Shown: one piece after another, positions 3,102 through 58,144 of the stretch
Layout of the letters: each line of letters starts with the position of its first letter
Position numbering within the stretch: position 1 is the first letter of the stretch
NCBI GenBank assembly: GCA_024275075.1
Contig: JAJRZU010000043.1
Span: 6,696-70,695, forward strand
Length of the DNA stretch: 64,000 bases
Origin: Deltaproteobacteria bacterium
GTDB lineage: Bacteria; Desulfobacterota; JAJRXV01
Reading direction: 5' to 3'
Translations under genes and position numbers: made by a program
Notes under the pieces: generated by a model
Told to the model about the DNA's origin: nothing
What the model saw: only the letters and a program-made list of their open reading frames with translations
The model's database searches: none

Positions 3102-3626
3102 ATGAACGAAGATATCATCATTGACTGATACAACCTCCTAAGACAATCTAACCTGCCTTCTAAGCATCATGGCGATGATCTCGAGACAGAAAGAGACGGA
3201 CTTATTCAACTGCTGGCATCATATAAGCGGATAAAGGCGTGTAAGATCGCGGTGGTGTTTGACGGTTGGAATAGCGGGAACCTGTCGCAGCGCTCATACA
3301 TGGCAAGAGGTATCAAGGTCATCTACACGAAACAAGGGGAAGTCGCGGATTCCGTCATTAAGCGAATCGCCGAGAAATCAAAAAGAGAACTGGTCATAGT
3401 TACTTCTGACATGGAGATAAAGACCTTTGCCGAAAAGTGCGGTAAAATAGTGATCTCATCGCCCGAATTCCTGGACAAGATAGATATGGCAAGGTACTTC
3501 AGCATGAAGGGCGGCGTTTGTGAGGATGACCCGGAACCAGCAAGAACCGGCACCAAAAAGAAGGGCAACCCAAGGAGACAGACCAGGAAGGAGCGTAAAA
3601 AGAAGCGCCGGCTGGATAAACTGTAA
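3102..3626 (+). pseudogene. YacP-like NYN-domain protein interrupted by an in-frame TGA at 3126-3128 (uninterrupted ORF part is 3252-3626)
   Basis: The frame from ATG 3102 reads MNEDIIID-TGA-YNLL...IAVVFDGWNSG... The canonical N-terminus is (L/I)(L/I)DGYN, so TGA sits where the conserved Gly is expected (GGA to TGA). The downstream 124-aa ORF has the NYN/YacP core and a Lys/Arg-rich tail. Confidence 0.55.
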
Positions 3627-3636
3627 ATAATATGAT

Positions 3637-4290
3637 ATGAATGACGCACAGCGTACCTTAAATATAACCGAACTATTCTATTCCATTCAGGGGGAGACAT
3701 CCTTTTCAGGGCTGCCGTTCATCTTCATCAGGCTGACCGGCTGTAACCTGAGATGCTCTTACTGCGATACAAAATACGCTTACGACGGCGGGCAGGAGCT
3801 CTTGATCGATACGATATCAGGGCGGCTCAAGGAGTTTCCTTGCCGGCGGGTCACTATTACCGGCGGCGAACCGCTTTTACAAAAAAACTCTTTCTGGCTG
3901 ATGGATACTCTGGTGCAAAACGGGTATACGGTGCTGTTAGAGACAAACGGTACGGTTGACATCTCTTCGGTCAATAAGAGTGTTGTAAGGGTCGTCGATA
4001 TCAAGTGCCCGGGCTCGAATCACGCGGACAGTTTTGATTTCAGCAATATCGCTCACCTGAGAGAGCGTGATGAAGTCAAGTTTGTGCTTACAGATGAGCG
4101 GGACTATGAATTTGCAAGGGAGATCATCATGGGATATCAACTGACGAAGAAATGTAAAGTAATTATTTCAGCCGCTTATGAACGGGCGCCGCTTGAGACG
4201 TTCGCGAAACGGATACTAGAAGATGGGCTTGATGTCCGGTTGCAGATGCAGCTACACAAATACATTTTCGGGGATAAAGAGGGTGTGTAG
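3637..4290 (+). CDS. queE: 7-carboxy-7-deazaguanine synthase QueE (radical SAM)
   Basis: 217 aa with the N-terminal QGEG motif and the CNLRCSYCDT radical-SAM cysteine motif. Directly followed by queC. Confidence 0.85.
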   Translation: MNDAQRTLNITELFYSIQGETSFSGLPFIFIRLTGCNLRCSYCDTKYAYDGGQELLIDTISGRLKEFPCRRVTITGGEPLLQKNSFWLMDTLVQNGYTVLLETNGTVDISSVNKSVVRVVDIKCPGSNHADSFDFSNIAHLRERDEVKFVLTDERDYEFAREIIMGYQLTKKCKVIISAAYERAPLETFAKRILEDGLDVRLQMQLHKYIFGDKEGV

Positions 4291-4968
4291 ATGAAGCGTT
4301 GTGTAGTGTTACTTAGCGGTGGTGTGGACTCGACCACTGTGATGGCGATAGTGAAGAGCCAGGGCTATGAAATATATGCGATCAGCTTCGATTATGGTCA
4401 GCGCCACAAGATCGAGCTTGAGAAAGCAAAGAAGATCGCCGCTCTTTATGGCGCGAAGAAGCATATCGTCGTGGATGTCGATCTTCGCAAGATCGGTGGT
4501 TCCGCCCTGACCGATGATATCGCCGTACCAAAGGCGCGCGTGATAGACGCCACCATACCCGTCACTTATGTGCCCGCGAGGAACGTGATATTCTTATCGA
4601 TTGCGCTGGGCTACGCGGAAGTGAACGAAGCGGACGAGATATTCATCGGCGCTAACGCGATAGATTACAGCGGGTACCCTGACTGCCGGCCGGATTTCAT
4701 CAAAGCGTTTGAGGATATGGCGAACCTCGCGTTAAAGGCGGTTGCTACCAACACGGAAACAAAGATACACATAAGATCGCCGCTGATAAATATGACGAAA
4801 GCACAGATAATTCAGACAGGGCTCTCATTGGTAGTGGACTACTCTCTCACATTCAGCTGTTACGACCCGATCGGCGGGGCCAAGCACTGTGGGGAATGCG
4901 ACAGCTGCATATTGCGCGCTAAAGGTTTCAAAGAGGCGAAAAAGGAGCGTGACGCTCCACCCAATTAG
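4291..4968 (+). CDS. queC: 7-cyano-7-deazaguanine synthase QueC
   Basis: 225 aa with the SGGVDSTT PP-loop and a C-terminal CGECDSC zinc motif. Confidence 0.9.
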   Translation: MKRCVVLLSGGVDSTTVMAIVKSQGYEIYAISFDYGQRHKIELEKAKKIAALYGAKKHIVVDVDLRKIGGSALTDDIAVPKARVIDATIPVTYVPARNVIFLSIALGYAEVNEADEIFIGANAIDYSGYPDCRPDFIKAFEDMANLALKAVATNTETKIHIRSPLINMTKAQIIQTGLSLVVDYSLTFSCYDPIGGAKHCGECDSCILRAKGFKEAKKERDAPPN

Positions 4969-5039
4969 CAACCTCTCTTATGGGCGCAAAACAGTGTGCA
5001 ATACTAAATATAAATACTCTTTTTTATTGCAATTTAGAA

Positions 5040-5606: not shown

Positions 5607-5732
5607 AATATATTATCAACCCTCTCTTTTCGTTAAAAATATCGTACCTATTTATAGCAAAATATTTCAGAAAATACAAACTGATTTATTCAGGCTTGCC
5701 TGTTTCTATGATTTAATACCTCGCAGCTTGCT

Positions 5733-6080
5733 GCGTAATTATTTAAAATTGATACCTCGTAGCTCTGCTACGGGGTAGCCCATTTATAAGGCCTCTGCGC
5801 GGTCAGGCAGAGCTATTAATCCGGCAATCAAACAGTGCGCTTTTACGACACGTCATCCCCGCGCACGCCGTCATCCCCGCGAAAGCGGGGATCCATAAAG
5901 CCAATAACGACAACTGGATTCCTGCTTTCGCAGGAATGACAACCGGCTATATTTTTGACGATAAAGCATACTTATTTAGTTGCCGTGTTAATTCGATAAA
6001 GGGCATGTTGCCCAATCCAGTTTAGGGGCTGAAAACCCCTACGCTTCCGTTGGTCGCTACCCCGTAATATCAGCTACTTA
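5733..6080. repeat. Cluster of short palindromic intergenic repeats (REP/MITE-like)
   Basis: Hairpins CGCAGCttGCTGCG and CCCCGCGAAAGCGGGG (two copies of gtcatccccgcg), plus TCCTGCTTTCGCAGGA. Also motif GGCCTCTGCGCGG (found again at 25338 and 48078) and motif GGGCATGTTGCCCAAT at 6001 (found again at 45097 and 48100). Confidence 0.5.
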
Positions 6081-6143
6081 CAAAAGCGCTTTTTTGAAAA
6101 ATTCGTAAAATATGCTATTTGGCAGCACTCCTATAAAGTGTAA

Positions 6144-8783
6144 TTATTCATCTTTTTGTGGTCTTCTGATATTGATTATCTTGGTATTCTTTAAGTGGGT
6201 GGACGTCTCGTATCTTGTTAACAACTCTATCTTGTTGACTATGCTTAACATCCTGTCCGCTTCTTCTGTTATGATCTTCAATGTCTGGTAAATATTTGAA
6301 TCTTCCTTCGTATCGTTCATCAGAAACTCAGAGTATGACATGATCGTCGTCAGCGGCTGCTTCAGTTCATGCGCGGACGAACCCGCCAATTCACTCTCTG
6401 CAATCAGCCGGTCTTTCTCTATCGCAGTCTCTTCGGATTTCTCAAGGCTCTTCGATGCCTTTGCAAGCTTGTCATCGAGATACCGGTTCATTACCGCCGC
6501 GCCAAGCTCACTACCGACCGTATCTAACAGCTTCAAGTCATACCCTGTCTTCTCCCTGGCGCTTGTACCGACAAGGAATATTGCGCCATACATCTTTTCC
6601 CGTACCTTTATAGGCACCAAGATGAACCGATCAATACCGCTGCTTGCGCAAAGGGTCTTTAATTCAAAAGAGATAGCGGCTCTTTTATCAACGTCATCGA
6701 CGGCGACAGAGGCCTTGCTTTTTATAAATTCATTGATTATCTCTTCGGCTCCCCACAACTCGATTATTTTATTGGAGAATCTTTCAAATAGATCATACAC
6801 GGCTCTTAGCTCAATTTTCTTCTTCTCTTCATCGAACAATAATACTATGCCGCCCTTTAGCTCTAAGAATTTGACAATCACTTTTAGCGAGCTGTCCAAA
6901 ACGCCCGTCAAGTCTGTGTCTTCATTAATTATTTCAGGGATAGCGCCCAGCAGTGCAAGCTCCTTGTTTTTCCTTAGCGCCTTGAGCTCCAATAGTTTTG
7001 TACCTGTCACGTCCCTTACTAAGGAGATAAAGCCGTAGACCTCATTTTTCGCGTTGCGCACCGGCTGGGTGAACAGGTCGTAATATTTCTCCTTACCAGA
7101 GCGGGCAATTATCCTCATCTCATGATTGTTCGGGGTCTGTTTTTCGAGCGTTACCGTTGCCGGACAGTTGTTGCAAACCGCACTATGCCCCCTGTATACG
7201 TTATAACACTTGTTCCCGATCAGCTCATTTGGCTGTTTATTAAACAGGTGCGCCTGGTACTTGTTGACCATCGCGACTTCAAAGTCACTGGTGATCAACG
7301 ATATCCCCATTTTCAGGCCGTCAAACACTGACTGAAGCTTGTTTCTCGTCCTGCTAAGCTCGTCGGCCAGTTCCTTCTGGGGAGTGATATCCGTACCTAT
7401 ACACTGGATGGAATCAGGGGCTGCGTCATCTTTGACAATGGTATTCGTTATTGAAAACACCTTTGGCTTCCCCCATTTATCATTTTGTATACAAAGCTCA
7501 TAAGCCGCGCTTGCACCCCTTAAAGCCCTCTTGTAATTCTCCTTGAATATCTCCTGATTCTCCGTACTTAGCAGGTCTAAGAAACTTGTCTGCGATATAT
7601 TATCCGTATTTAGTTCAAGCTCTTGTACAAAGCAGTTGTTATACGATTTTATCTTATAATCATCTCTTGTGACAATAAATATAATATTCGCGGCGTTTTC
7701 AAACAGCTCCTTGTACTTCTTCTCCGCCTCGCGCTTTTTGTCGCTGACCTCTTTTTCAAACTTTATCTGCATGTATTTTTTAAAGACTTTGTTTATCGTA
7801 AAGTTTGAGACAAAGAAGAGCAGAACCAACAGCGCGGCAATGATCACATTGTGCTCAAAATTCTCCGCGTTTACTTCTTGCACCACCTTTGCCGGTGTCG
7901 CGATGGCAAGCTACCAGAAGTTCTGCCAACCGACAATTACAGGGGTGTATGCGACGTAGAAGTCCTCGTTTTTATATCTGTATCCGCCGCCGCCGCTCTC
8001 CTGCGCTATCATGGACAACGATGTCTCGTAAAGCTTCCCGTAACTTTTTGAACGGAACGCATTCTCGCTTTTCATACCGACGAGCTCGGGCGACATGGAG
8101 TGTATGATGATCTCGCCGCGATTGTCAAGCGCCCACAGATAAGTGTTCGGGTGGAATTTCAGACTCTCGATAAAGAGCTGCTCGACCCGGGCAAGCTTTA
8201 TTGTAACAGCAACCGCTCCGGTGAAATCCTCAGGATGGAACGTCTTGCCAGGATCGCTTCTTGAATCATACATGGGCGCTGATACCGTTATGACCCGCTC
8301 ACCCATATCATCTACATGGACTTGCGATGTATACATGTTTTTCTTGTACTTGTTGGTATGGTCGCGGACAGATGTAAAGAAATCGCTTGACGCAAACGAT
8401 TTATTTATTTTTTCCGTGTATACTCTTGAAGGGAGCGCAAAGAGCAAGGTTCCGGATTTATTATAAATCCTTATACTTGATATCTCTTTTTGCTTCAGCC
8501 TGTAAAATGACAACAAATCCCTTATCTTCTCTAAATCAGAACCTTCATGTAAAGACAAGTTATTTGAAAAGATCTCAAGCTCACGCTTCTGGGTATTGAT
8601 AAATTCCTGAATGCCGTTTGATATCTGCTCGACTATCAGTATCTGGCTTTCATTGAACTGGTTGGCGTAAGAGAGTTTTTGAGATGCATAGTTGTGGTAT
8701 GCCACATAGGAGATAGCTATAAAGAACACTATGAAAAAAACATATATTAAGTAGTAAGTCTTCTTTTCTGTTGTCATTGGCAT
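6144..8783 (-). pseudogene. Sensor histidine kinase (Cache-TM-PAS-GAF-HisKA) interrupted by an in-frame TAG at 7911-7913 and lacking a HATPase_c domain
   Basis: ORFs 7911..8783 (TM plus periplasmic Cache-like sensor) and 6144..7886 (TM2, PAS, GAF, HisKA with SAHELKQPLTTI) are in the same frame, separated only by TAG. The read-through is ...GWQNFW*LAIATPAKVVQEV.... The protein ends about 70 aa after the H-box with no ATP-binding domain. Confidence 0.6.
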
Positions 8784-8892
8784 CCTAAGCAGGCTCGCCT
8801 GATTTTTTCTGCGGGTTAATTCCCTTCCCCACGCCGGTTGCTGTGAAGTTTAAGCCCGCCCCCCGTCAGCTTGCAGGGGAGGGGCGGTTCAT

Positions 8893-10689: not shown

Positions 10690-10923
10690 GTGCAAAAATA
10701 TCATATTATGAAAATCAATAATCTTTTAAAATGGTTCAGCGCGATTACCGGTGTGGTCCTCCTGCTCATCGGCTTAGTCCTTAAGATAGGGGAAGCGCCG
10801 GCAAACTACGACCAATTTATATCAGGCAATAGTTTCGTTATGCTGGTTATCGGTATTGAGGCGATAATAATCAATTTTGCCTTCAATCATATTTTAGATG
10901 AAGATTATACTAAACAAAAATAA
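10690..10923 (+). CDS. Small membrane protein, unknown function
   Basis: 77-aa ORF with two hydrophobic helices. GGAGG RBS about 8 nt upstream. Confidence 0.3.
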   Translation: MQKYHIMKINNLLKWFSAITGVVLLLIGLVLKIGEAPANYDQFISGNSFVMLVIGIEAIIINFAFNHILDEDYTKQK

Positions 10924-10932
10924 CTGATAAAG

Positions 10933-11697
10933 GTGTATTATTTGATGAAGAGTATATTTCGTAACTTATTTGTATCATTTATAATTCTCGCATTATTCTC
11001 GTGCGGCGGCAAGGATCTGAAGAAGAAGAAATTAGCGGAGGCGCATTACAAAATGGGGCTCTCATTCTTTAGTGAAGGCGACCCGACAGCCGCGTTAAAG
11101 GAATTCATGGGCGCTTATGAGAACGCCCCTGATGACTATGAAATAAACCACATGCTTGGTATCGCGTACCTGAAGAAGAAGGATTACGTTAATGCGGAAA
11201 AGCACTTATTAAAAGCGACAACGCTCAAAGATAATGCTTCTAAAGCCTATAACAGCCTGGGCGTCGTATACCTTGAATCGCACCGGTACATAGACGCCAT
11301 CGAGCAGTTTAAAAAAGCGGTCGATAATATCCTGTACGACACGCCCGAATACTCTTATGCCAATATGGGCTGGGCATATTACAAAAAAGGTGAGTTTATA
11401 GAAGCGAAGAAGGCGTACGAGAAGTCTATCGAGGTTGAGCCCCGCTTTGGCCTTGCGTATTTTAACCTTGGACTTTTATATTTCGACCTTGAAAAATATG
11501 ATGAGGCTGTCAAATAATATAATAATGCCATCCGCTACTTCCCAAATTATCTGGATGCGTGGTACAATTTGGGGTTGACTTATTTTAAGATGAAGAAGAA
11601 CATCAAAGCGGAAGAGGCATTTAGTAAAGTAACGGAAATTGCACCGGATTCTGAAAAAGCTGAGCTGGCGAAGGGTTATCTGGAACTTCTTAAATAA
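10933..11697 (+). pseudogene. TPR-repeat lipoprotein interrupted by an in-frame TAA at 11515-11517
   Basis: Lipobox LFSCGG, then TPR repeats. The frame continues through TAA as ...KYDEAVK*YNNAIRYFPNYLDAWYNLGLTYFKMKK... to a stop at 11695-11697. TAA occupies the position of the conserved Tyr of a TPR (TAT/TAC to TAA). Confidence 0.55.
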
Positions 11698-27931: not shown

Positions 27932-29122
27932 TTGGAGGGGAGCATGTCTGAAGAAAAGAAGGATGGCCAGGTAGAACAGCTAAAAAAGGACTTTCAAGTT
28001 ATAAAGGATTTTTTGCCAAGGGTTCTTGATTTTGTCAAAGAGCATAAGCGGAAACTCATTATTCTCGGCGCTGTTTTAGTTGCATTAGGGGCGTTATTCA
28101 CGTATAAGATGATTCACTACACCTCAGAGCCTGAGTTTTGCAACCTGTTTTGTCATGAAATGACCCCTGAGGTTGAGTCATGGGAGAATTCATTCCATTC
28201 TCAAAGGGGTGTCGATTGTAAAGAGTGTCATTATGGCGAGGGTATTATGGGGGTTGTTAAAGCTAAGTATTACGCACAGTTTCAGCTTCTGCATCATATC
28301 ACCGGTTCATATTCAAACAACCCGCTTTAAAAGGCGAAGGAGCACGGATTTGAGTTAGCCGCACAGAACATCCACAAGAAGGGTAATAAGGTCTATTACA
28401 TCAAAGCGCATGGATATGCCGCCGAAGTCATCAATTTTAACTGTAAAAGGTGTCACCCGAACGTATTTGACATAGTTAGATCATCAGGTCGGTCGGTCAG
28501 GATGGCTCATAAGCAGCATCTTGAGAAGGGTTATGAATGTACTGACTGTCACATGAATATCGTTCATGGCACAGATCCTGAGGGCTTGAACCTGCCGACG
28601 ATGTGGACGTGTTTCAAGTGCCACGATGATGATAAGGCTCCAAGGGAAGAGTGTGCGTTATGCCACGTCGGGCAAAAGGAGATGTGGGAAGGTGTCGGCG
28701 CGAAAGACATAGATGATGAATCTGCGATGATGCTTGACGAGGTGGAGTGTTCTGACTGCCATTTAGCAGAGGATGACTATATCCCGCCGAGGGATGGCGC
28801 GGTATGCGCAGAATGTCATGATGATGAATCGTATGCGGATACTCTTAAGGAGTGGCAGACGGAAGTCAAGTCAAAAGGCTTCAAGTTAAGAAATATTTTA
28901 GATGAGCTTGCGCAAAGGATGAAGAATATTCAAGAATCTAAGAGAAAAGTGCGTGATTATGATACAGCAAAGGATCTTTATAACAAAGCTACCTACAATG
29001 CCGCGATGATTGAGCATGATGGCAGTAAAGGCGCACATAATTACGATTATGCTGTCTCGATATTAGATGCAAGCCTTAAAATGGCCAGGGACGCAAGGAA
29101 GATATTAACTGCTGGAAAGTAA
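27932..29122 (+). pseudogene. NapC/NirT/NrfH-family membrane-anchored multiheme cytochrome c (8 CxxCH) interrupted by an in-frame TAA at 28328-28330
   Basis: ORFs 27932..28330 and 28502..29122 share a frame. The 171 nt between them is open and encodes another CxxCH (CKRCH). The N-terminus has a TM anchor plus CNLFCHEM...W..SFHS...CKECHY, typical of NapC/NirT. Confidence 0.6.
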
Positions 29123-29168
29123 TAAGTTATTGAATAGTTATAAATCATTTAGGGAGGGGAATAAATAA

Positions 29169-31228: not shown

Positions 31229-31267
31229 TATCATTTAGGTGAAAACATTGTTTAGGAGGGGGCTAAA

Positions 31268-32152: not shown

Positions 32153-32240
32153 ACGAATTAAGTATCTGAAATGAATTAATAAGGGGAGTTTTTTTAAACT
32201 CCCCTTATTTATAAATCCATATAAATTACAAATAACTCTC

Positions 32241-33200: not shown

Positions 33201-33201
33201 T

Positions 33202-36200
33202 ATGAAAAAGTTTTTTTTTATATTACTCTTTATTTTATTCTTTTGCTCATTTATATGCCTTAAAAGCTCTTTTGCTTACGATAAAGAGAAGGCAAAGATG
33301 TTAAGGGATGAGACAAAAGAGTGTGCTATATGTCATTATGAGTTTATCCCCCAGATATGGGTAGGTAACGGTACCGAACTGGTTGAATATGTTCCCGGCA
33401 GGTTTGTCGGGGACGAACGCGTTTGCTACGGATGTCATAATGGCGGCGTCGCTGATTCCAGGTGGCGTGCATGGTCGATGCAAAGGCACCCGCTAAAAAA
33501 ACCTTCTGACAAAATCAAGATTACAAAGGAATTCCCCTTAAATGACAAGGGTGAGATGTATTGCGGGACATGTCACACCGCTCACGGCGTGGATACGGAC
33601 GCATCCGTTGAGATGGAGCGAACGATATTCCTAAGATACTCAAACAACAATTCTGAGATGTGCATGAGCTGCCACACAAACCAGGCCAAGGGGAAGGAGG
33701 GCGGCAGCCACCCTGTAAATGTATCAACGATCAAATTACCTGAGAAGCTGTCTCATATTGGTGGCTTTACCGGGGATGAACCGAATAAAGTGATCTGTCA
33801 AAGCTGTCACAGCCCGCACGGGACAAGTGAGAAAAAACTGCTGGTCGCCCCGATAAAAAATGCCGAACTATGCGTTCTGTGCCATTATGATAAGGACGCG
33901 AAAACGAGAAAAGAAGCGGCTCGCAAAGGCACGCACCCGGTAAACATCGCGTCAGACACGGTGAAGATATCAGAGAAGTTGAGAAAATTAGGTAGTCGAA
34001 CCGGTACGAAGGGCAGGATAAATTGTCTTTCATGCCACACCGTTCATGATGGCATCAAGGGAAACAAACTTGTTTTAAAAAGAAACTCTGACTCTTCGTT
34101 CTGCCTTGAGTGCCATGAGAAGCAGGAATCGGTATTAGACTCAAAGCATGACCTGCGGGTTACCGCACCGAATGAGCGAAACAAGCTAAAGCAATCACCA
34201 AAGCGCTCCGGGCCTTGCAGCGCCTGCCATATCCCTCATAAAGCCGCCGCGGCGAAGATATGGGCAAAGGAGATCGACACCCGCGGCGAAGCGATAGAGG
34301 AGCTTTGTAAAACCTGTCATGAAAAAGGGGCATGTGCCGAAAAGAAGCAGGTCGGCTTAAATTCGCACCCGGTGGGGATACCGCTTGCCAGGGTAGGCGG
34401 GAGCAGATCGGCTCTGCCGACGTTTGATGAAAATGGCGTAAAAACTATAGTCGATACGAATGTCACCTGCTCCACATGCCATAACGTTCATCAGTGGGAC
34501 CCCCGCAATAAAGTGGTAAAGGGTGACAAGGACATTGACGGTAACTATACAAACAGTTTCTTACGGATAAGGAACCTGTTTGGACTGAGGCTTTGTACTG
34601 ATTGCCATAAGGACCAGGAGTTTATTTTCAGGACTGAACATGACCTGACAGTAACCGCTCCTTTAGAGAAGAACATCCTCGGGCAGACTCCCGCTGAGTC
34701 AGGGCCGTGCGGTGTGTGTCATACCGTCCACAACGCGTTAAGCAAGAACAAGCTCTGGGCGCGACAGTTAGGTGACGCCGATGACGCTGTCTCCATGTTC
34801 TGCTTCAGCTGCCATGAGGAGGGCAGGGTCGCACAAAAGAAGCTTACCGGTGAACATTCCCACCCTGTGATGGCCGACATAAAGCGGGCGGATGGATCGA
34901 CAACGCTCCCTTTGTATATGATAAACAGTAAAAAGGACCCTGAAAAGGGTAAGGTTACCTGTGCAAGCTGCCATAATCTTCACCAATGGGACCCCGAGAT
35001 CAAGGGGCAGGGACCCGGGGAGAATACCGAAGGCGATGTTACAAACAGTTTCTTACGGATAAGGAACGATGCGGATTCCGCTCTTTGTAATGATTGCCAT
35101 GAGGGGAAATATCTGATAGAGGACACCGACCACGACATGGCGGTGACCGCTCCGGACGAGAAGAACCTGCTCGGGCAGACAGTAGCCGAAACAGGGGTAT
35201 GCGGCGCCTGTCACACTATTCATAACGGTGTCTCCTCATTCAAGCTCTGGGTAAAAAAACTCGGCGGCACCGAGCTTGATGATTGTATATCAAGGCTCTG
35301 CTTTAGCTGTCATGACAGGCAGCGTGTCGCACAAAAGAAGCTGGTCGGGGAGAATTCCCACCCAGTGAACGCCGATATAAAGAAAGCGGACGGCTCGACA
35401 GACCTGCCATTATTCAACAAGGAGGGGCGCATCCCGAAAGAAGGCGAGGAGGGCAGGGTCTTTTGTTCCACCTGCCACAACCTGCACCAATGGGACCCGA
35501 CGAAGAAGGAGAAAGGACCAGGGGAGCCTGTGGAGGGTGATATCTCAAACAGCTTCCTGCGCCTGCCGAATGACGCCGGCTCTACGCTGTGCAAAAACTG
35601 CCATGACGGTAAAGACCTCGTTGAGGGGACTGACCATGACATGGCGGTAACGGCGCCCGGGGAGAAAAACATTGTTGGGGAGACCGTGGAGAAGACCGGC
35701 GCGTGCGGCGCGTGTCATATCGTCCATAACGGTGTCTCAACGTATAAACTGTGGGGTAAGGAGTTAGGCGGCGACGAGGATACAGATGGTATTTCGCGGC
35801 TATGCTTCAGCTGTCACGAGGAAGGCAGGGTGGCGCACAAGAAGCAGGTCGGTAAGAATTCCCACCCCGTTGGCGTCGATATCTCGACCGTAGGCGGTGA
35901 GACAGACCTGCCGCTCTTTGATGAAAAAGGTAAAAAAATTGACGGTAATGGCAATGGAAAGGGCAAAGTGTTCTGCTCCACCCGCCACAACCTGCACCAG
36001 TGGGATCCGCTCATAGATGATTATGGCTCCAATGAAAACCTTGAGGGCAACCGCACCAACAGCTTTTTGCGCCTGCCGAATGACGCCGGCTCCACGCTGT
36101 GCAAAAACTGTCACAAGGGTAAGGAATATGTGGAGGGGACAGAGCATGACCTTTCGGTAACCGCGCCGGCCGCAGAGAACGCTATCGGCGAGACAGTCGA

Positions 36201-37203
36201 TGTCGCAGGCGTTTGCAGCGCATGTCACCTTGTCCATAATGGATACGCGTCCGCGTTTTTATGGGCGCGAGTACCGGGCGTGGGGGAGGACAAAGTATCA
36301 AGGTTGTGCACAAGCTGCCACTTAGAGGGACGTGTCGCGCAGAAAAAGACATTAAATGAGAACTCGCATCCGGTTAACGTGCTGATCAGCAGGGCGGACG
36401 GCAGCACCGATTTCCCGCTTTATAATGATATGGGGAAGAAAGACCCTGAAGGCAGGGTGTTTTGCAGCTCTTGTCACAATGTTCATCAATGGAATCCGTC
36501 TAAAGTGGATTATGGGCCAAGGATCAACATTGAAGGAACGCCCCAGACAAGCTTCCTGCGCGCGCCCGGCCTTGACCTGTGTATTAATTGCCACGAAGGG
36601 AAAGATTATATTATCGATACAGAGCATGACCTGAGCGTCACCGCACCCGAAGAGAAGAATCTCCTTGGCAGGACTGTCGCCGAGGACGGCGTTTGCAGCG
36701 CGTGTCACATTATCCATAATGGTGTCAACAAACCGCTCCTGTGGGCGCGTCTTTTCGGGCCGCCGTTCATCAGGGACTGGCAGACGAAATTCGGGGCGGA
36801 AGAGGACCCTGTGGTTCAGGCTTGCACAAGCTGCCATTCTGAAAAAAACATCGCCGAGAAGAAACAGCCGATAGTCGGGCTGCACCCGCGCGGTATTTTT
36901 GTCGGGATAAAACCACTGCCGTTCATCTCCAAGGGAGAGCCGATTCCACCACTATATGATGTGCACGGCGCGAGGATAAAAACAGGGAACTTAGTCTGCC
37001 CTACATGCCACAATCTGCACCAGTGGAGCGGTAGAAAGAAGAAGAAGGGGCCGGGCAAGAACATCGAGGGCAATGCGAACAACAGTTTTTTAAGGAGTGG
37101 AGTCTCTTTCGGCTTATGTCCTGACTGCCACTCATTTGACGGATTGTTCCGGTTCAAGTATTATCATGTACCAAGGATGAGAAACAGAAAATCGAAGAAA
37201 TAG
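33202..37203 (+). CDS. Giant repetitive multiheme cytochrome c (about 31 CxxCH motifs)
   Basis: The ORF frame opens at 33169, but ATG 33202 (MKKFFFILLF signal peptide) follows the NHL stop. The C-terminal two thirds consists of about 5.5 tandem units of roughly 165 aa, each with 4 CxxCH, with 80-90 % nucleotide identity between units. Confidence 0.8.
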   Translation: MKKFFFILLFILFFCSFICLKSSFAYDKEKAKMLRDETKECAICHYEFIPQIWVGNGTELVEYVPGRFVGDERVCYGCHNGGVADSRWRAWSMQRHPLKKPSDKIKITKEFPLNDKGEMYCGTCHTAHGVDTDASVEMERTIFLRYSNNNSEMCMSCHTNQAKGKEGGSHPVNVSTIKLPEKLSHIGGFTGDEPNKVICQSCHSPHGTSEKKLLVAPIKNAELCVLCHYDKDAKTRKEAARKGTHPVNIASDTVKISEKLRKLGSRTGTKGRINCLSCHTVHDGIKGNKLVLKRNSDSSFCLECHEKQESVLDSKHDLRVTAPNERNKLKQSPKRSGPCSACHIPHKAAAAKIWAKEIDTRGEAIEELCKTCHEKGACAEKKQVGLNSHPVGIPLARVGGSRSALPTFDENGVKTIVDTNVTCSTCHNVHQWDPRNKVVKGDKDIDGNYTNSFLRIRNLFGLRLCTDCHKDQEFIFRTEHDLTVTAPLEKNILGQTPAESGPCGVCHTVHNALSKNKLWARQLGDADDAVSMFCFSCHEEGRVAQKKLTGEHSHPVMADIKRADGSTTLPLYMINSKKDPEKGKVTCASCHNLHQWDPEIKGQGPGENTEGDVTNSFLRIRNDADSALCNDCHEGKYLIEDTDHDMAVTAPDEKNLLGQTVAETGVCGACHTIHNGVSSFKLWVKKLGGTELDDCISRLCFSCHDRQRVAQKKLVGENSHPVNADIKKADGSTDLPLFNKEGRIPKEGEEGRVFCSTCHNLHQWDPTKKEKGPGEPVEGDISNSFLRLPNDAGSTLCKNCHDGKDLVEGTDHDMAVTAPGEKNIVGETVEKTGACGACHIVHNGVSTYKLWGKELGGDEDTDGISRLCFSCHEEGRVAHKKQVGKNSHPVGVDISTVGGETDLPLFDEKGKKIDGNGNGKGKVFCSTRHNLHQWDPLIDDYGSNENLEGNRTNSFLRLPNDAGSTLCKNCHKGKEYVEGTEHDLSVTAPAAENAIGETVDVAGVCSACHLVHNGYASAFLWARVPGVGEDKVSRLCTSCHLEGRVAQKKTLNENSHPVNVLISRADGSTDFPLYNDMGKKDPEGRVFCSSCHNVHQWNPSKVDYGPRINIEGTPQTSFLRAPGLDLCINCHEGKDYIIDTEHDLSVTAPEEKNLLGRTVAEDGVCSACHIIHNGVNKPLLWARLFGPPFIRDWQTKFGAEEDPVVQACTSCHSEKNIAEKKQPIVGLHPRGIFVGIKPLPFISKGEPIPPLYDVHGARIKTGNLVCPTCHNLHQWSGRKKKKGPGKNIEGNANNSFLRSGVSFGLCPDCHSFDGLFRFKYYHVPRMRNRKSKK
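34549..37140 (+). repeat. Intragenic tandem repeat array (about 500-nt period) inside the giant cytochrome gene
   Basis: Unit landmarks (N)SFLR(I/L)(R/P)N at about 34549, 35041, 35548, 36058, 36550 and 37085. For example, 35545-35610 versus 36055-36120 are nearly identical. Confidence 0.6.
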
Positions 37204-38704: not shown

Positions 38705-39670
38705 CTACTTGACCCCGCTTATCGTACCTGAAAATACTTTTCGGATTCCACTGTCTGAGCGCAAAATCAGGAAGCCGTTCTCGTCGATCCCTTAGGCGAC
38801 GCCCGTTACCTCGTCGGCGATCGTCTTAACGGTGACTACCCTGTTCAAGAGGAGGCAATAGCTGTTCCATTCCCCCCGTATTTTTTCAAAACCCTCTTTT
38901 GTCAATATTATATACATTTTTTCAAGATTTAAAATGATTTTCTCAAAAAGGCTCCGCTTCGAGATCTTTGCGCCGCACTCATGCCTTAGTGTGGTAGCGG
39001 CAGCTATGAGCTCCTTCGGGAAGTCATCGGGCTGCGAGTTCACGTTGACGCCGATACCGGTGATAATAAAATCGATAGCGTCGGACTCGCTTTTCATCTG
39101 TGTCAGGATGCCGCATACCTTTTTGCCGCCGATGTAGATGTCGTTAGGCCACTTGATACCGGGTTTCAGGCCGGTGACCTCCATGATCGCCTGTGCGACG
39201 GCTATCGCGCTCATCACCGTTACCCTTGGTGCGAATGACGGGAGCATCTTCGGCTTCAGTATGACAGAGAAGTACAGGTTCTCGCTTGACGCCGAGACCC
39301 ACTCCCTGCCCATCCTGCCCCTGCCTTTTGTCTGCCTGTCGCTGATGACGACTGCGCCCTCACCGCCGCCGCTTTGCGCCAGCCTGTACGCTTCATCGTT
39401 GGTGGAGCCGATAGTATTGTAGTGGATGATGTTACCGCCAAGCAGGTGACCGGTGAGGCTTTTCCCCACCGCGGCGAAATCGATGCAGTTAAGGTCATCG
39501 ACCAGCTTATAACCGTACGACCTCATCGATATGATGTTATAGCCCTGTGATCTCAGGATGTTGATGCGCTTATGCACGGCGTTCCTCGTGATGCGTAGCT
39601 CACCGGCTATCTTCTGGCCGGACAGATAATCTTTATTATTCTTTAGAAGTGTAAGGATGCTATCTTTCAA
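38705..39670 (-). pseudogene. birA: Biotin-protein ligase / biotin operon repressor BirA interrupted by an in-frame TAA at 38792-38794
   Basis: N-terminal HTH and a catalytic domain with GRGRMGREW. ORF 38792..39670 stops before the C-terminal SH3-like domain. The same frame continues ...TGVA*GIDENGFLILRSDSGIRKVFSGTISGVK to TAG at 38705, matching the BirA C-terminal domain. Confidence 0.65.
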
Positions 39671-43172: not shown

Positions 43173-43249
43173 TATTTATCCTTACCTGTATAGACTATAA
43201 AAAAGGGGTTATAAAAACCCCTTTGATTTCTTCAAGCTGTGGATTCCCA

Positions 43250-44806
43250 CTACTCTTTTTTAAGCTTCTCTATCTCTTCTTTTATCAAACGTTCCGCGAG
43301 ATCCGGTACTACTTCCCAGACAACGTTCTCGATTATGCTCTTCGTAAGCTCTGCCGCGGTTTTTCGCAACGTCTGCTCGTTTACTATCTCGCCAAGCTTC
43401 TCTTGCACAATAGCATTGATCTTGCTCTCATCTAACTTGAGCTCCTGTATTACCGCCGGTTGCTCTGCCTCTCCTTCAGCTGTGCCTTCAAAAGCGCTTA
43501 CATCCCAGCCATCTTCCTCTTCAACCGGAGCCGCCTCTTCTTCTGCCGCTGCCATGATCTCTTCTTCGGACTCCCATTCCTCTTCTTCCACTTCGACCGG
43601 CGCTTCCACTTCGACCGGCGCTTCCACTTCGACCGGAGCCTCCACTTCAACCGGAGCCTCCTCTTCGACCGGCGCCTCCACTTCAACCGGCGCCTCCACT
43701 TCAACCGGCGCCTCCACTTCAACCGGAGCCTCCTCTTCGACCGGCGCTTCCACTTCGACCGGCGCCTCCACTTCGACCGGCGCTTCCACTTCAACCGGCG
43801 CCTCCTCTTCAACCGGCGCTTCCTCTTCGACCGGAGCTTCCTCTTCGACCGGAGCCTCCACTTCGACCGGAGCCTCCACTTCAACCGGAGCTTCCACTTC
43901 AACCGGCGCCTCCACTTCGACCGGAGCTTCCACTTCAACCGGCGCTTCCACTTCAACCGGAGCTTCCTCTTCGACCGGAGCTTCCTCTTCGACCGGAGCC
44001 TCCTCTTCGACCGGCGCTTCCTCTTCGACCGGAGCCTCCTCTTCAACCGGCGCTTCCACTTCGACCGCCTCGACGACAAACGCTTCAGCGGTTTCTTCTA
44101 ATTCACCCTCTTCGATTATCTCCGCTTCGTGTATCTCTTCATCATCATATTCCCCTTCTAATATTTCCGCGGCTTCAATGATCTCTTCTTCGGGTTCATG
44201 CTGTATCTCCTCAACAGGAGTGATCGACCAGTCACCGTCACTGGACGCGGGAGCCTCCCCTGCTTCAGAATCATCGACAGAAGAGAAGGAGATATCCTCG
44301 TCAATAGAGAGTGGGGCTTCTTCCCCAGCAGGCTCTGTCACGGTAGCAGGTTCTTCAGCCGCGGCGCCTTCATCCATAGCGCCCAATTCCATTTCAATGG
44401 CCTGCTCTTCTATTACCTCAGCTTCAGCGTCTTTAGTGCCTGCCGCGTAGAGCGCATTCACTTTCTCGATGAGTTCATCGCCCCCAAAAGGCTTTATTAT
44501 ATGATCATCAGCTTTGGCATCGGCAAGCTTAGTTTCATCGACTTCTATATATTTTGAGATCATAATGGCAACAGGTATGCCGCTAAGCTCTGGGTCATTT
44601 TTGATCTCTTTACACACATCATAACCGTTTTTGTCGGGCATGTTAAGATCGACAAGGATAGCGTCGGGCATAGTCTCTTTTGCTCTTGATACGCAGTCAG
44701 CACCGTCTGTAACGCATATTATTTCATCATCTATGTTATAATAGATCAGTTCGATAACTTTTCTAATGGTCGCGCTATCATCGGCAATAAGAAGTTTTTT
44801 TGACAT
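43250..44806 (-). CDS. CheY-like receiver domain protein with long acidic EAPVE(V/E) tandem-repeat region
   Basis: N-terminal REC (LLIADDSATIRKV...D54-like DLNMPDKNG...KP). About 170 aa of EAPVEV/EAPVEE repeats, then a short conserved helical C-terminus. Confidence 0.6.
   Translation of the reverse strand: MSKKLLIADDSATIRKVIELIYYNIDDEIICVTDGADCVSRAKETMPDAILVDLNMPDKNGYDVCKEIKNDPELSGIPVAIMISKYIEVDETKLADAKADDHIIKPFGGDELIEKVNALYAAGTKDAEAEVIEEQAIEMELGAMDEGAAAEEPATVTEPAGEEAPLSIDEDISFSSVDDSEAGEAPASSDGDWSITPVEEIQHEPEEEIIEAAEILEGEYDDEEIHEAEIIEEGELEETAEAFVVEAVEVEAPVEEEAPVEEEAPVEEEAPVEEEAPVEEEAPVEVEAPVEVEAPVEVEAPVEVEAPVEVEAPVEVEAPVEEEAPVEEEAPVEEEAPVEVEAPVEVEAPVEVEAPVEEEAPVEVEAPVEVEAPVEVEAPVEEEAPVEVEAPVEVEAPVEVEAPVEVEEEEWESEEEIMAAAEEEAAPVEEEDGWDVSAFEGTAEGEAEQPAVIQELKLDESKINAIVQEKLGEIVNEQTLRKTAAELTKSIIENVVWEVVPDLAERLIKEEIEKLKKE
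43588..44075. repeat. 18-nt coding tandem repeat (about 27 copies; GAAGTGGAAGCGCCGGTC on the coding strand, encoding EVEAPV)
   Basis: Direct reading of the sequence shows two alternating unit variants (…CCACTTC / …CCTCTTC), giving EAPVEV versus EAPVEE. Confidence 0.8.
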
Positions 44807-53565: not shown

Positions 53566-53847
53566 TTTCTCCTATGATAAAATTCTACTCCGAAATAATT
53601 TTGTTAATGATATAAATATTGTACAGCCCCAGAGAAGTTTTCTCATTTATTGTTTATGGCATCATGCCATCTCCTTATAATATTGTTCTATTTATTAGGG
53701 CGTTAGTCTGGTATTTTAATAATTATATCAACAAACAGTAACATTGTCAACACAAATTAAATATTTTATTTACCAATATTTTCGTCAAGTTAGCGCAATT
53801 CTACGCAAATTTTGAGTGTTTTTATAACGCCGTTTACATATATTGAG

Positions 53848-54582
53848 CTAATATATCACATCAATCAGGAAAAGGCCGCGGGCGGGGGCAGTGATATATG
53901 GTTTTTCTATCTTCTTCTGCCTTAAAACAACGTCAGCAAATCCTTCATCATACTTACCATAACCGATCTGCACCAAGAGACCGGTGATATTCCTCACCAT
54001 CTGCTTCAAAAAGCCGCTGCCTGTAAATGTCAGCGTAATATCATGTCCGTTTTTTTGTATATCGATATCATATATAGTCCTTAAAAAGCTCTTTACACTC
54101 GTACCGGTGGAAGTGAAGCCGGTGAAATCATGCTCACCGGTCAAACGCTTTGCCGCCCGCCGCATCTTACTGACATCAAGCGGCTTTCTTACGTACCATG
54201 AATACTTTTTCATAAACGGGTCTTTTGTGTCACGGTTAAATATATGATATTCATACACTTTTTTTTTCGCGGAGATTCGTGCGTGAAACCCATCATCGAC
54301 ACGGCGCATATCCACCACCGCAATATCATCTGGCAGTAGCGAGTTCAACGAATTCCGAAGCCTGACAATATCGATATCCCTTTCTATAAGAAAATTCGCC
54401 GTCATCTTCCTCGCGTGTACCCCTGCGTCAGTTCTCCCTGAAGAGTGTAGCGTCACGCGCTCTTTTGTGACGACCATAATACAGTTTTCTATCTCGCCCT
54501 GAACACTCCTCGCGTTCGACTGCCTCTGCCAGCCGCTATAATCCGTACCGACAAATTCTATTATCATCATTATATTATTCAT
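53848..54582 (-). CDS. truA: tRNA pseudouridine(38-40) synthase TruA
   Basis: IEFVGTDYSGWQRQ...RTDAGVHA motifs. The ORF extends to 54663, but the start is likely the internal Met just after the upstream gene's stop. Confidence 0.75.
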   Translation of the reverse strand: MNNIMMIIEFVGTDYSGWQRQSNARSVQGEIENCIMVVTKERVTLHSSGRTDAGVHARKMTANFLIERDIDIVRLRNSLNSLLPDDIAVVDMRRVDDGFHARISAKKKVYEYHIFNRDTKDPFMKKYSWYVRKPLDVSKMRRAAKRLTGEHDFTGFTSTGTSVKSFLRTIYDIDIQKNGHDITLTFTGSGFLKQMVRNITGLLVQIGYGKYDEGFADVVLRQKKIEKPYITAPARGLFLIDVIY

Positions 54583-54601
54583 TGTACGTGAACTATTACC
54601 G

Positions 54602-54946
54602 CTACTTATCGTTTTGATGAAGAAACTTGGTAACCTGAACAGTCTCTCTTGTGACCATACCACCTTGCATAACCGCGTAAACCTCAGGGAGAATGCTTAA
54701 TATGTTATCATCCGTATCAATAACCTCGATTATTATCGGCAGGTCTCTTGACAGCCTCAAGAACCGGTCTTCGTGAAGCTCGTGCCGGCAGCCAAAACCG
54801 GCGATGCCCTTTGTGACAGTCGCGCCGGATATATTGTGCTTAGCGCAAATATCCAGAATATGCTTGTAAAGCGGTTCATGCTCTACCTGATCCGCCTCGT
54901 CGATATAGACCTTCATCTTAACCATCTCACATTGAATCTTTTTCAT
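54602..54946 (-). CDS. DUF190 (PII-like) protein, CrcB-associated
   Basis: MKKIQCEMVKMKVYIDEAD...GIAGFG pattern of DUF190 (COG1993). Immediately downstream of crcB. Confidence 0.55.
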   Translation of the reverse strand: MKKIQCEMVKMKVYIDEADQVEHEPLYKHILDICAKHNISGATVTKGIAGFGCRHELHEDRFLRLSRDLPIIIEVIDTDDNILSILPEVYAVMQGGMVTRETVQVTKFLHQNDK

Positions 54947-55019
54947 CTCATCCACCTCTAATTGAACTGCCCCGCTGAAAGCCGCGGGGGCTAAGCCCGT
55001 TGCAAAACAAGCGCGTCGG

Positions 55020-55415
55020 TTAGAATATCCTGTCAAGTAGAACACCGAAAGACACACCGAGAAAAACCATAAACAGGCATATCGCAAGGTTTGTCAGGAT
55101 ATTCATAATTGATAAGTAATAGCTTCCCTCTTTTAACAGGTTAAACGTCTCGAAGCTAAAGGTTGAGAACGTCGTAAACGCGCCTAAGAAACCGATAGTC
55201 ACCGCTACGCGCAGGTTCTGCCCGAAAAGTTGCCTGTGCACCGCTAAAAATGAGATGAACCCTAACAGAAAGGACCCGATAGCGTTGACGGTGAGGGTGC
55301 CGTAAGGGAATCCGTCCCCGAAGAGCCTGTAAGCGATGCCTGACACGTAGAACCTGCTCACCGCGCCGAAGAACCCGCCGAAACCTATGTAAAGTATCTC
55401 ACGCAACCGGTTCAT
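55020..55415 (-). CDS. crcB: Fluoride ion channel CrcB/FluC
   Basis: 131 aa, 4 TM helices, with GFFGAVSRF...GTLTVN motifs. Confidence 0.85.
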   Translation of the reverse strand: MNRLREILYIGFGGFFGAVSRFYVSGIAYRLFGDGFPYGTLTVNAIGSFLLGFISFLAVHRQLFGQNLRVAVTIGFLGAFTTFSTFSFETFNLLKEGSYYLSIMNILTNLAICLFMVFLGVSFGVLLDRIF

Positions 55416-56010
55416 CTATATCCTTAATGTCAGAGCTGGTATTAATATTCCTGAGCGACAGCATATCCGGGTCGTACTGTTTCACCTCGTCGATGTTCAT
55501 CGTCTTCGCCCGAAGCTCGCGAAACAGAGGCGATATCTTAAGCTCATCATTAATTATCATACCCTTTATCGTTTTCAGGCACTTCTTGCTGTATATCGAG
55601 TGCAGCGGCTCATACCCCGCCGCCTCGCTTTTCCCTGGCTGCTCCCTGACAATCGTATAGATCCACGCGGTACCGATGCTCTTGATCATATACTTTATCA
55701 GCCGCTCACTCAGAAACGGCATATCGCAGGCCGCGACAAAGCAGCGGTCGTTAGTTGAGTGCAGGAGCGCCGTATATATCCCGCCAAGGGGGCCTTTTCC
55801 CCTGGCAGTATCGCTCACGATAACGGTATCGTACTTAAGGTACGGTATGCAATCGTTCGTGACGATGATTATCTCGTCGAAGAGCTTTTTGAACAGTTTT
55901 ACCTGCACATCGATTATCGGTGCCCCGCCTACCCTGATGAACGCTTTGTTCATGCCCGATAACCGTCTCGCCTTACCGCCCGCCAGAATGACCCCAGTCA
56001 TAATGTCCAT
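55399..56010 (-). CDS. mobA: Molybdenum cofactor guanylyltransferase MobA-like
   Basis: MTGVILAGGKARRLSG..K nucleotide-binding loop. The ORF extends to 56079, but Met 56010 fits. Confidence 0.65.
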   Translation of the reverse strand: MDIMTGVILAGGKARRLSGMNKAFIRVGGAPIIDVQVKLFKKLFDEIIIVTNDCIPYLKYDTVIVSDTARGKGPLGGIYTALLHSTNDRCFVAACDMPFLSERLIKYMIKSIGTAWIYTIVREQPGKSEAAGYEPLHSIYSKKCLKTIKGMIINDELKISPLFRELRAKTMNIDEVKQYDPDMLSLRNINTSSDIKDIDEPVA

Positions 56011-56088
56011 CCCTATGATATAATTCCAAGCGTGCCCATCCTGCCGCTGCCTGTAACCTACCGGTATTGCTAAAAGCAAGATTGCCGC

Positions 56089-56135
56089 GCCGATTTCTGA
56101 AAAGCGAAAGCGCCTCGCAATGACGAAAAAAGAAG
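56089..56135. repeat. Repeat family B copy
   Basis: AGATTGCCGCGCCGaTTTCTGAAAAGCGaaAGCGCCTCGCAATGAC matches 20956-21004 with 4-5 differences. Confidence 0.5.
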
Positions 56136-56177
56136 TTGCTCAGGAGCCTTTAATTAGAAGAAACATTATGTTTCCCT

Positions 56178-56627
56178 TTAACACAGGCTTAAGCTCTTAT
56201 TCGTAAAATACTGCTTATGTGACCAGACATACCGCAGTATCAAGAATAAGATCAAGCAGAAAATAAGGTTGATATTAGCGTAATCCACTAACGCGTCTGA
56301 GCTTTTCAGTATTTTTACCAGTGCATCCTTATCAACGAAAGCGAGCGTAATAAGAATATCCGCGATAGCGAATATATTATACCCTATCAACAAGGAGCGC
56401 GCAAATTCCTGTTTCTTATACGTCCCGATACTAAGGTACAAAAGGACAGAGGTCTCCGCCGCGATCACCAGCTTTGACAGCACCGGTGGCAGCGCCACGC
56501 TAAAGAGTATATAGACCTCGGATGCCCCTAATACGCTCATGAAAGCCATGAAGCCGTAGAACACCGCTATGAACACCATCGAAAATGGCAGGCGCCCGGT
56601 CTCATTCCCTGTCTCTTGTTCCTTCAT
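56178..56627 (-). CDS. Integral membrane protein, unknown function
   Basis: 149 aa with 4 predicted TM helices. Translationally coupled to the upstream DsbA-like gene (4-nt overlap). Confidence 0.3.
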   Translation of the reverse strand: MKEQETGNETGRLPFSMVFIAVFYGFMAFMSVLGASEVYILFSVALPPVLSKLVIAAETSVLLYLSIGTYKKQEFARSLLIGYNIFAIADILITLAFVDKDALVKILKSSDALVDYANINLIFCLILFLILRYVWSHKQYFTNKSLSLC

Positions 56628-58144
56628 CTATCCGGCCCGCTGTTTATGTAAGATATGAATCTGTTCAACCCGTCCTCGTCATACAGGTATACCGCCTCGT
56701 TGTCGTTGATGTAAAACACCAGATCACCCTCGACGTTCCTCTTTAGTAACCAGTCCAGCTCATCGGCGAGCATCTTGGCGACCTTCTCCTCATCCCTGGC
56801 CAGCCTTTTCAGCGTTTTCGGGTCTATCCCCGCCGCGATCACGGCATCTTCCCAATACGTAGTCTGATAATCCTCAACCTTCTGCCTTAAATAGTTAAAC
56901 AAGTTATCAGGGAAGTACTTCGCGATGACAAGACGCCTCACATCCTCCTCAAGCTCTGGCTGCCCGCGGCGCGTAGTAAACTCGCCCTCAGGGTTCTTCA
57001 CAACCATATAATGGAACGTAATGCCCCTGTTCTGTATATTGTCCACCTCGTCAAGCAGTCTTTTCATTACGCTATTACATTTTGGCGACATGCTCGAACA
57101 GAGCACCTCGAGCTTACCCGGCACCGGTTCCCGCTCTATCGCGATGGAGCTTTTCATCACATCGTATCGCAGTAAATAAGCGTCAAACCTTTTCGTGACA
57201 ATATTCTTTATCTGCTCAAAGTTCGAGTGCCTGACAACATTCTCGCTGAACAGATACGCCGGTATATACTTTATCCTGTACTTCTTCACCATCTCCTGAC
57301 CCTCTTTGGAATCGTAATCAATCCGCCGGATATCTATCTTTGGGAACAGTTTCTTCGTCGCCGCCACCGCCTTATCCAGATTGTTGAAAGGCGAGTCGTT
57401 CGTTATGATATAGTGCGTAATATTCTGTGCCGCCTTTACTCCGGTATCGGCGCTGTCGTCGTCACCGGCGCCGGCACAACCCTCATCCGGCGAACTCTGC
57501 CCGTCATTCATGCTGATACCGGCGGGCACATTGTCGCAGACGGCGTCAGTCACGCGCCCGCATATCATGTTATAAACGGCGAGGCTCGTGATGCTGCCGG
57601 AAAACCTTTTGCCATCGACAAACAGCGTCGGTGAGTTCTCGATCTTCGCGTCCTTTCGCTTTTGCACATCCTCGCGCAGGGCGTCCGCGCCATCCTGCGA
57701 ATACGCGCACCCGTTGACATCACCGGGGTCGATACCGATCTTCGCGGCTGTCTAATCGAATGTAAGTCTGTCGCCTTCAGTGTTGAACAGTTTCAGGTAC
57801 TCAAAATATTTGTCAGGGTAAAGCTTCATGATACACATCTGCCGGATATCCTGGGAAAGGCCGTCCTCACCGAACATGGAACTCATCGCGCCGGTCTCGT
57901 CGATCCGCTCGATGAACCGGATATTCAGCTCGACACTCTCACCGAACAGCTCCTTCACCTTTATCATCGCCAGCTCCGCGTTCATTCCGTACCGGCATAA
58001 ACTCGACACATAAAGGTCGAGCGTTACCTTCGCTGCGGCATCCTCCACAGCACGCCCCTTCTCTTTCGGTGCGTCTTTCATACCGGTGCAGCCCGCGCAC
58101 GCCATGAAAAACGCGGCTAATGTAAATAATATTACTTTTCTCAA
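56624..58144 (-). pseudogene. DsbA-like thioredoxin-fold lipoprotein (two-domain) interrupted by an in-frame TAG at 57752-57754
   Basis: ORFs 57752..58144 (lipobox MACAGC, SSLCRYG) and 56624..57667 are in the same frame. The 84 nt between them is open and encodes ...TAAKIGIDPGDVNGCAYSQDGADALREDV.., which continues into ENSPTLFVDGKRF (DsbA-type C-terminal motif). Confidence 0.5.

Follow-up and report, generated by a model that had tools for sequence, protein, structure and literature searches.

Six lone in-frame stop codons, and no frameshifts, in 64 kb of a Desulfobacterota-like contig: probable substitution errors in a deposited assembly

The DNA considered here, which we call the window, is a stretch of 64,000 nucleotides (positions 6,696 to 70,695 of the forward strand of contig JAJRZU010000043.1, assembly GCA_024275075.1, deposited as a Deltaproteobacteria bacterium). 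It carries queE/queC, a large cluster of multihaem cytochromes, the pst operon and the group valS-nadC-birA-coaX; this content and the best matches put the contig close to metagenome-assembled genomes of Desulfobacterota type, and the bacterium would be an uncultured, sulfate-reducer-like one. Of the approximately 52 genes of the window, about 46 are complete and distinct, with full-length Pfam domain matches; the other six are each interrupted by an in-frame stop codon (Table 1), and it is the origin of these six stops that concerns us here. When each of the six loci was translated through its stop, a single in-frame stop and an open frame beyond it were found in every case, which confirms the six positions first proposed in a sequence-only reading of the window.

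Table 1. The six interrupted genes of the window, with the position of the single in-frame stop in each
Gene	Coordinates	Strand	Length (codons)	In-frame stop	Codon interrupted
YacP/Rae1-like NYN-domain gene	3102..3626	+	174	TGA 3126-3128	9
dCache-PAS-GAF-HisKA sensor	6144..8783	-	879	TAG 7911-7913	291
TPR lipoprotein	10945..11697	+	250	TAA 11515-11517	191
NapC/NirT-like multihaem cytochrome	27944..29122	+	392	TAA 28328-28330	129
birA, biotin-protein ligase/repressor	38705..39670	-	321	TAA 38792-38794	293
DsbA/thioredoxin-like lipoprotein	56624..58144	-	506	TAG 57752-57754	131

The six products were scanned against Pfam with the stop masked as X. In five of the six a domain match runs straight across the stop: NYN_YacP (PF05991) covers residues 5-134 of the YacP-like protein, Cytochrom_NNT (PF03264) residues 38-209 of the NapC-like cytochrome and Thioredoxin_4 (PF13462) residues 35-187 of the DsbA-like lipoprotein, while the tetratricopeptide repeats (TPR) of the other lipoprotein also cross its stop. 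The birA stop falls inside the C-terminal domain BPL_C (PF02237, residues 275-318) and cuts off only the last 29 residues, the final 9% of the gene. The sensor kinase is the exception, its dCache_1 match (40-283) finishing 8 residues short of the TAG and the PAS, GAF and HisKA matches following after it. This kinase has no HATPase_c domain by Pfam. The idea that this was another truncation was rejected, since its orthologue P0141 has the same architecture; the combination dCache-PAS-GAF-HisKA without HATPase_c is therefore that of a conserved HisKA-only family, and P0141 (locus L083, 4899-7511) is also preceded by a small PAS protein. The TPR lipoprotein gene, for its part, lies directly upstream of a rodZ-like gene, an order that we presume to resemble that of the PilF/PilW genes.

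The homologues of all six genes are full length and carry a sense codon in the column of the stop; together with the Pfam matches, this bears out the earlier claim that the frames continue into conserved sequence. For the YacP-like gene, the Bacillus subtilis YacP segment 'LLVDGYNMI' (5mq8) aligns with 'IIIDxYNLL' of the window and places a Gly at the stop; the original codon would have been GGA, changed by G>T at 3126. The sensor kinase has a sole orthologue (P0141, 870 amino acids, 46% identity), in which 'NFWSIAISTP' corresponds to 'NFWxLAIATP' and puts a Ser there, pointing to TCG as the original codon and to G>T at 7912 on the + strand. Seven relatives of the NapC-like cytochrome (52-73% identity, 388-423 amino acids) have Glu in five cases and Ser in two, so that the codon was presumably GAA or TCA, and the change G:C>T:A either way. 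The BirA column holds L/K/I/V/E among the homologues, with Leu, Lys or Ile in the seven closest, which makes TTA (Leu) or AAA (Lys) the probable original. The remaining two columns are variable and, although both stops are compatible with a single-base change, they point to no one original codon: the DsbA-like homologues (491-785 amino acids) have D/E/Q/S/K/V/T/A, and 47 metagenomic homologues of the TPR lipoprotein have A/H/Q/Y/N/I, mostly Ala, His or Gln. A conserved Tyr had been proposed for the TPR stop, but this does not hold for the orthologues; it is in designed consensus TPR proteins of the PDB that the column carries Tyr.

The neighborhood of birA provides some further context. Two relatives (L081 and L082) keep the pair birA-coaX, and L081 also has valS-nadC upstream. 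In both, an intact BirA of 321-322 amino acids ends exactly at the start of coaX, and the read-through frame of the window has the same geometry. All such comparisons were limited to relatives at no more than 73% protein identity (the best values being 73% for the NapC-like cytochrome, about 65% for QueC, 58% for BirA and 46% for the kinase with its single orthologue), and they show that the stops are private to this record, not that they are errors. When GTDB representative genomes were scanned with QueC, no match exceeded 66% identity and synteny was absent.

The stops are, in any case, a property of the deposited sequence, because the split products are themselves entries derived from it: in a collection of 15 billion proteins they occur as exact singletons, all from a single NCBI contig, 82,748 bp long. 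These fragments are BirA of 292 amino acids (P0001), the kinase of 580 (P0125), the TPR lipoprotein of 190 (P0126), the downstream part of YacP (124), the cytochrome in two pieces of 128 and 206 (P0127 and P0128) and the DsbA-like lipoprotein in two of 347 and 117 (P0129 and P0144).

It was important to know whether the six stops were the only lesions. A dicodon coding-potential scan, which lists every stop with 50 open, coding-like codons on both sides, recovered those at 11515, 57752, 7911 and 28328, the only four of the six that its flanks can test; the YacP and BirA stops lie too near a gene end. The scan gave no seventh interrupted gene, its other high scorers being true junctions of different genes that share a frame. 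No frameshift was seen in the approximately 52 genes, as the sequence-only reading had also noted, no coding remnants were found in the intergenic gaps, and the final tally for the window is 6 nonsense codons, 0 frameshifts and 0 second lesions. The overlapping open reading frames (ORFs) at 53848-56079 were considered as frameshifts and rejected, being four distinct and complete genes (TruA, DUF190, CrcB and MobA-like). Just before the TPR gene lies a 77-amino-acid ORF (10690-10923, +) with two predicted membrane helices, good coding potential and no Pfam match. It is in frame with the TPR gene, 9 nucleotides upstream of the start of the longest TPR ORF (10933; the ATG used is at 10945), and it seems to be a small membrane-protein gene in its own right, not an additional interrupted one.

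Six interrupted genes in about 52 is well above a background of 1-2% (binomial P = 1e-5 to 6e-4), corresponds to a density of approximately 94 internal stops per Mb, and makes the earlier figure of about 10% of genes a fair one. With random placement, the probability that all six would fall in different genes is 0.66. Such a share of interrupted genes (about 11%) is what ordinary pseudogene decay in a shrinking genome might produce, but we consider this explanation hardly credible here. Frameshifts, deletions, insertion sequence (IS) elements and second lesions were not found in the window, all of the domains are intact, and the gene density and operon structure are like those of a healthy free-living genome; even at 1:1 odds the probability of 6 nonsense codons to 0 frameshifts is 0.016. 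The earlier statement that the pattern is hard to explain by ordinary decay therefore stands, for want of frameshifts, second lesions and IS elements. Moreover, some 1,481 codons 3' of the stops remain open, without further lesion and with their domains intact, which implies that the events are younger than about 0.5% neutral divergence or else never happened in a cell.

A second family of explanations would have the stops decoded, whether by nonsense suppression throughout the genome (through suppressor tRNAs or weak release factors), by insertion of selenocysteine (Sec) or pyrrolysine (Pyl), or by a changed code. All six frames are open and homologue-like after the stop, as decoding would predict; the single TGA stands at a Gly, as in code 25; and birA would remain functional. 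These attractions are, we think, outweighed. TAA, TAG and TGA end 29, 14 and 9 ordinary genes of the window respectively, and the in-frame stops are sparse: 6 in 19,344 codons, one per affected gene and none in the approximately 46 others. The residues that they replace differ (Gly, Glu/Ser, Ser, Leu/Lys and the variable columns). No significant RNA structure was found in the 100 nucleotides starting at each stop codon (z -1.16 to +1.43), and the window contains no Rfam match and no tRNA gene. The bases that follow the stops (+4: T, C, T, A, G, A) show no bias to leaky contexts. With respect to Sec and Pyl in particular, there is no fold resembling a Sec or Pyl insertion sequence (SECIS, PYLIS), and the TGA aligns with Gly, not with Cys or Sec. 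Because of these normal terminators, the sparse occurrence, the differing residues, the lack of structure, Rfam match or tRNA in the window and the unbiased +4 base, we regard reassignment, Sec/Pyl insertion and programmed read-through as very unlikely. For the decoding of the stops in general the chance seems to us very slight, and the earlier view that code reassignment does not fit agrees with the use of all three stops as terminators and with the differing residues.

Wherever the original codon can be deduced, the stop is one base away from it: GGA>TGA, GAA (or TCA)>TAA, TCG>TAG and TTA or AAA>TAA are all single transversions. When the stop-creating rate of each substitution class was computed from the window's own codon usage, uniform random substitution turned out to make a stop in 4.07% of changes, these being 39% AT>TA, 33% GC>TA, 11% GC>AT, 10% AT>CG and 8% GC>CG; AT>TA and GC>TA together amount to 72%. 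The observed mix is what unbiased substitution yields. The natural spontaneous spectrum would give a similar mix, according to a rough calculation from mutation-accumulation spectra, and for these two reasons the spectrum does not single out oxidative damage. We have accordingly rejected it as a discriminator between the different readings, transversions being expected from uniform random substitution. It does exclude two sole causes: deamination-type C>T/G>A damage (ancient DNA, deaminase toxins), since GGA>TGA and GAA>TAA are transversions, and a mismatch-repair mutator, since transversions without indels were observed; mismatch-repair mutators add mainly transitions and frameshifts.

The rate of stop creation permits an estimate of the total number of changes. 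For six stops to arise in 58 kb of coding DNA, about 147 substitutions would have been needed (95% range 54-321), or 0.25% of positions (0.09-0.55%). Spontaneous bacterial mutation has a substitution-to-indel ratio near 10:1 in mutation-accumulation studies, and at this ratio 5-27 frameshifts would be expected, as compared to the 0 that were seen; with 147 substitutions the probability of seeing no frameshift is then 4e-6, and at the lower bound of 54 it is 0.01.

In view of all this, we infer that the six stops are most probably single-base substitution errors in the deposited assembly consensus and not biology, an interpretation to which, short of proof, we would give a probability of roughly 0.65. 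On this view the cell would never have carried the changes, which would date from sequencing or assembly. The assembly would be a metagenome- or single-cell-derived consensus of an uncultured Desulfobacterota-like bacterium, and the likely source would be either miscalled bases where local depth or quality was low or template DNA that was damaged or had passed through a bottleneck. Random substitutions at about 0.25% per base, striking approximately 58 kb of coding sequence, would turn a sense codon into TAA, TAG or TGA in some 4% of hits and so leave about six lone nonsense codons scattered over genes and positions. Such a process would make almost no indels, and the frames would remain intact, with a homologue-like frame open downstream in every affected gene. 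The hits also ignore the importance of the genes: birA is struck, though two biotin-dependent carboxylase genes are present in the window. The earlier remark that birA is normally essential is a fair one, with the reservation that the stop removes its last 29 residues only. A density like this one would disable about 10% of all genes, a load that a haploid free-living cell could presumably not survive.

Such errors have a published signature (Cooley & Wright 2024, PMC11017572). Base miscalls yield internal-stop pseudogenes, while frameshifts report indels instead; low-quality reads increase the number of internal stops and not that of frameshifts; and the excess of internal stops follows the divergence of an assembly from the truth (R2 = 0.96) and serves as a proxy for assembly error (PMC11017572). 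The pattern that the sequence-only reading found hard to explain matches this signature. That reading had offered four explanations (substitution-type errors, a recent burst or relaxed selection, a population mixture collapsed into a consensus, and nonsense suppression) without choosing among them; our analysis favors the first and argues against the last.

Several observations weigh against assembly error, and they should be given their due. One is of magnitude: in simulated Illumina assemblies at 10-fold or lower coverage there is around 1 internal stop per Mb (PMC11017572), and the approximately 94 per Mb of the window exceed this to an extreme degree. The contig is also long (82.7 kb), which argues against a uniformly very low depth. 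A high density on a long contig calls for an unusual error source; candidates would be a template with heavy damage or one that had passed through a bottleneck, amplification with very uneven coverage, or poor polishing. In addition, substitution errors on this scale should leave missense changes, and no broken catalytic motif was found in ValS, AccC, PstB, QueC or CoaX, nor any excess of private substitutions in the NapC-like protein; both of these checks, and that of BirA which follows, have little power at 0.25%. In BirA, Gln191 (CAG, 39098-39100, -) lies in the 'GILTEM' motif at a position that is Glu in at least 98% of 119 homologues, and Lys238 (AAG, 38957-38959, -) at one that is Arg in at least 95% of them. 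Each codon is one base off the consensus codon, and the consensus residues are present in the four closest relatives. Both departures may be further substitution errors and a weak hint of extra missense; 9 of the 119 homologues deviate as badly as BirA at columns conserved in at least 95%. As a separate observation, birA (39670) and the DsbA-like gene (58144), both on the - strand, apparently start with TTG. ATG is the start in most of their homologues, namely in P0142 and in six of seven close homologues of BirA. Natural TTG usage is one possibility, given a BirA homologue whose first residue is likewise Leu; further A>T substitutions are another.

The opposite view would be that the mutations are real and very recent, the work of a substitution-only process. 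A lineage that has lost 8-oxoguanine (GO) repair (mutY/mutM) would be a candidate, as would one with defective proofreading; the window itself contains neither mutY nor mutM. The load might then be tolerated through relaxed selection, through many genome copies per cell that mask recessive alleles, or because the population is a dying or relic one. There is something to be said for this. The stops are, after all, in the record, with a single fresh lesion per gene; GO-type mutators substitute without frameshifts, matching the ratio of 6:0; and G:C>T:A, the change by which GO mutators are recognized, accounts for three of the four inferable sites. The five interrupted genes other than birA are plausibly dispensable and the birA stop is confined to the last 9% of its gene, while the isolation of the lineage, with no relative above 73% protein identity, leaves the comparison room for unusual biology. 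Nevertheless, we consider such a burst unlikely. The spectrum is unspecific, uniform random substitution giving the same one, and the closest BirA homologues (Leu/Lys) point to A:T>T:A instead of G:C>T:A. If the window is representative of the genome, a 10% density of knock-outs including birA would presumably not be viable in a haploid cell; the IS elements, second lesions and frameshifts typical of relaxed selection were not found in the window. The fuller form of this view, in which the stops are genuine alleles and a living, deeply branching Desulfobacterota-like organism tolerates a nonsense load of about 10% including birA, strikes us as distinctly improbable. It might involve complementing genome copies or an efficient suppression of all three stops, within a substitution regime of the oxidative-damage type.

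Somewhat different is the idea that the stops are real but rare alleles of a mixed population that entered the consensus where depth was low or through the handling of ambiguous calls. The stops are private and single-base, as such alleles would be. It is perhaps relevant that all of the three to four inferable changes result in a T on the + strand, whichever strand carries the gene (G>T at 3126, 7912 and 28328, and A>T at 38793 if the residue was Leu). Such a bias could be a sign of a consensus artefact tied to one strand or to some rule, and for rare alleles it might reflect a rule-based resolution of the ambiguity codes K and W. However, the pattern was spotted post hoc, its chance probability is about 0.05 by a rough estimate, and the window contains zero ambiguity codes. 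Rare alleles enter a consensus according to their frequency, so that the load found there should equal the mean carried by a cell, and this mean cannot amount to 10% of genes. We would allow this explanation only a small chance.

The window has some other features that deserve a brief mention. Just downstream of the sensor-kinase gene, in the gap 5607-6143, there is a GC-rich palindromic element at 5851-5940 that resembles repetitive extragenic palindromic (REP) sequences. It includes a tandem 18-nucleotide unit, CGTCATCCCCGCGCACGC, with a second copy (89% identity) and two inverted copies of ATYCCYGCTTTCGCRGGRATGAC; both strands translate into a peptide of the 'IPAFAGMT' type, which occurs in spurious ORFs of many proteobacterial genomes. 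The region 27944-37203 (+) is a dense cluster that begins with the NapC/NirT-like cytochrome and also encodes a 400-amino-acid MtrC/MtrF-domain cytochrome, a cytochrome b561-like membrane protein, a 294-amino-acid protein of unknown type, an NHL-repeat beta-propeller and a multihaem cytochrome of 1,344 amino acids that is matched many times by paired-CXXCH, cytochrome c7 and MtrC/MtrF-domain models. Judging from these predicted products, the cluster may well serve extracellular or periplasmic electron transfer. Finally, a 403-amino-acid ORF at 43239-44450 (+), without a Pfam match, lies antisense to a gene for a 518-amino-acid protein with a response-regulator domain (43250-44806, -), where the GC content of the window is at its highest (0.545) and the GC skew is strong (-0.26); this ORF is probably spurious, a shadow of the gene opposite.

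The practical consequences differ greatly according to the origin of the stops. If they are errors, this is a matter of quality control: the record probably carries about 0.25% substitution errors, and its proteins, including those of the six split genes that now figure as 'singleton' fragments in public collections, need to be checked against the reads before any evolutionary or functional use. Assemblies of this kind could then be flagged cheaply by their excess of internal stops without frameshifts. Real stops would mean that an organism survives with a nonsense load, an essential gene included, that is not known to be tolerated by any free-living bacterium, and they would point to polyploidy masking or to broad suppression.

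It remains to place the window among the systems that it resembles. Reductive genomes such as those of Mycobacterium leprae, Sodalis and Anaplasma ovis have a similarly high share of interrupted genes, but theirs come with frameshifts, deletions, IS expansion and several lesions per gene, whereas the window has a single nonsense codon, and no other damage, in each interrupted gene. The recoding systems (UGA reassignment in codes 4 and 25, Sec and Pyl) share with it the presence of in-frame stops within conserved genes, the one TGA of the window being at a Gly; in contrast to them, all three stops are involved here, all are still normal terminators, their occurrence is sparse and the residues are inconsistent. 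The lineages of mutators that lack GO repair share with it nonsense codons in the absence of frameshifts and a G:C>T:A change at three of the four inferable sites, but the BirA site suggests A:T>T:A and random substitution explains the spectrum equally well; we know of no mutator isolate with knock-outs in about 10% of its genes. The spurious internal-stop pseudogenes of erroneous assemblies (PMC11017572) differ from the window in density (about 1 as against about 94 per Mb) and by the length of the contig involved here (82.7 kb). What the two have in common is the rest of the pattern: lone stops in otherwise intact, conserved genes, free of indels and private to one record.

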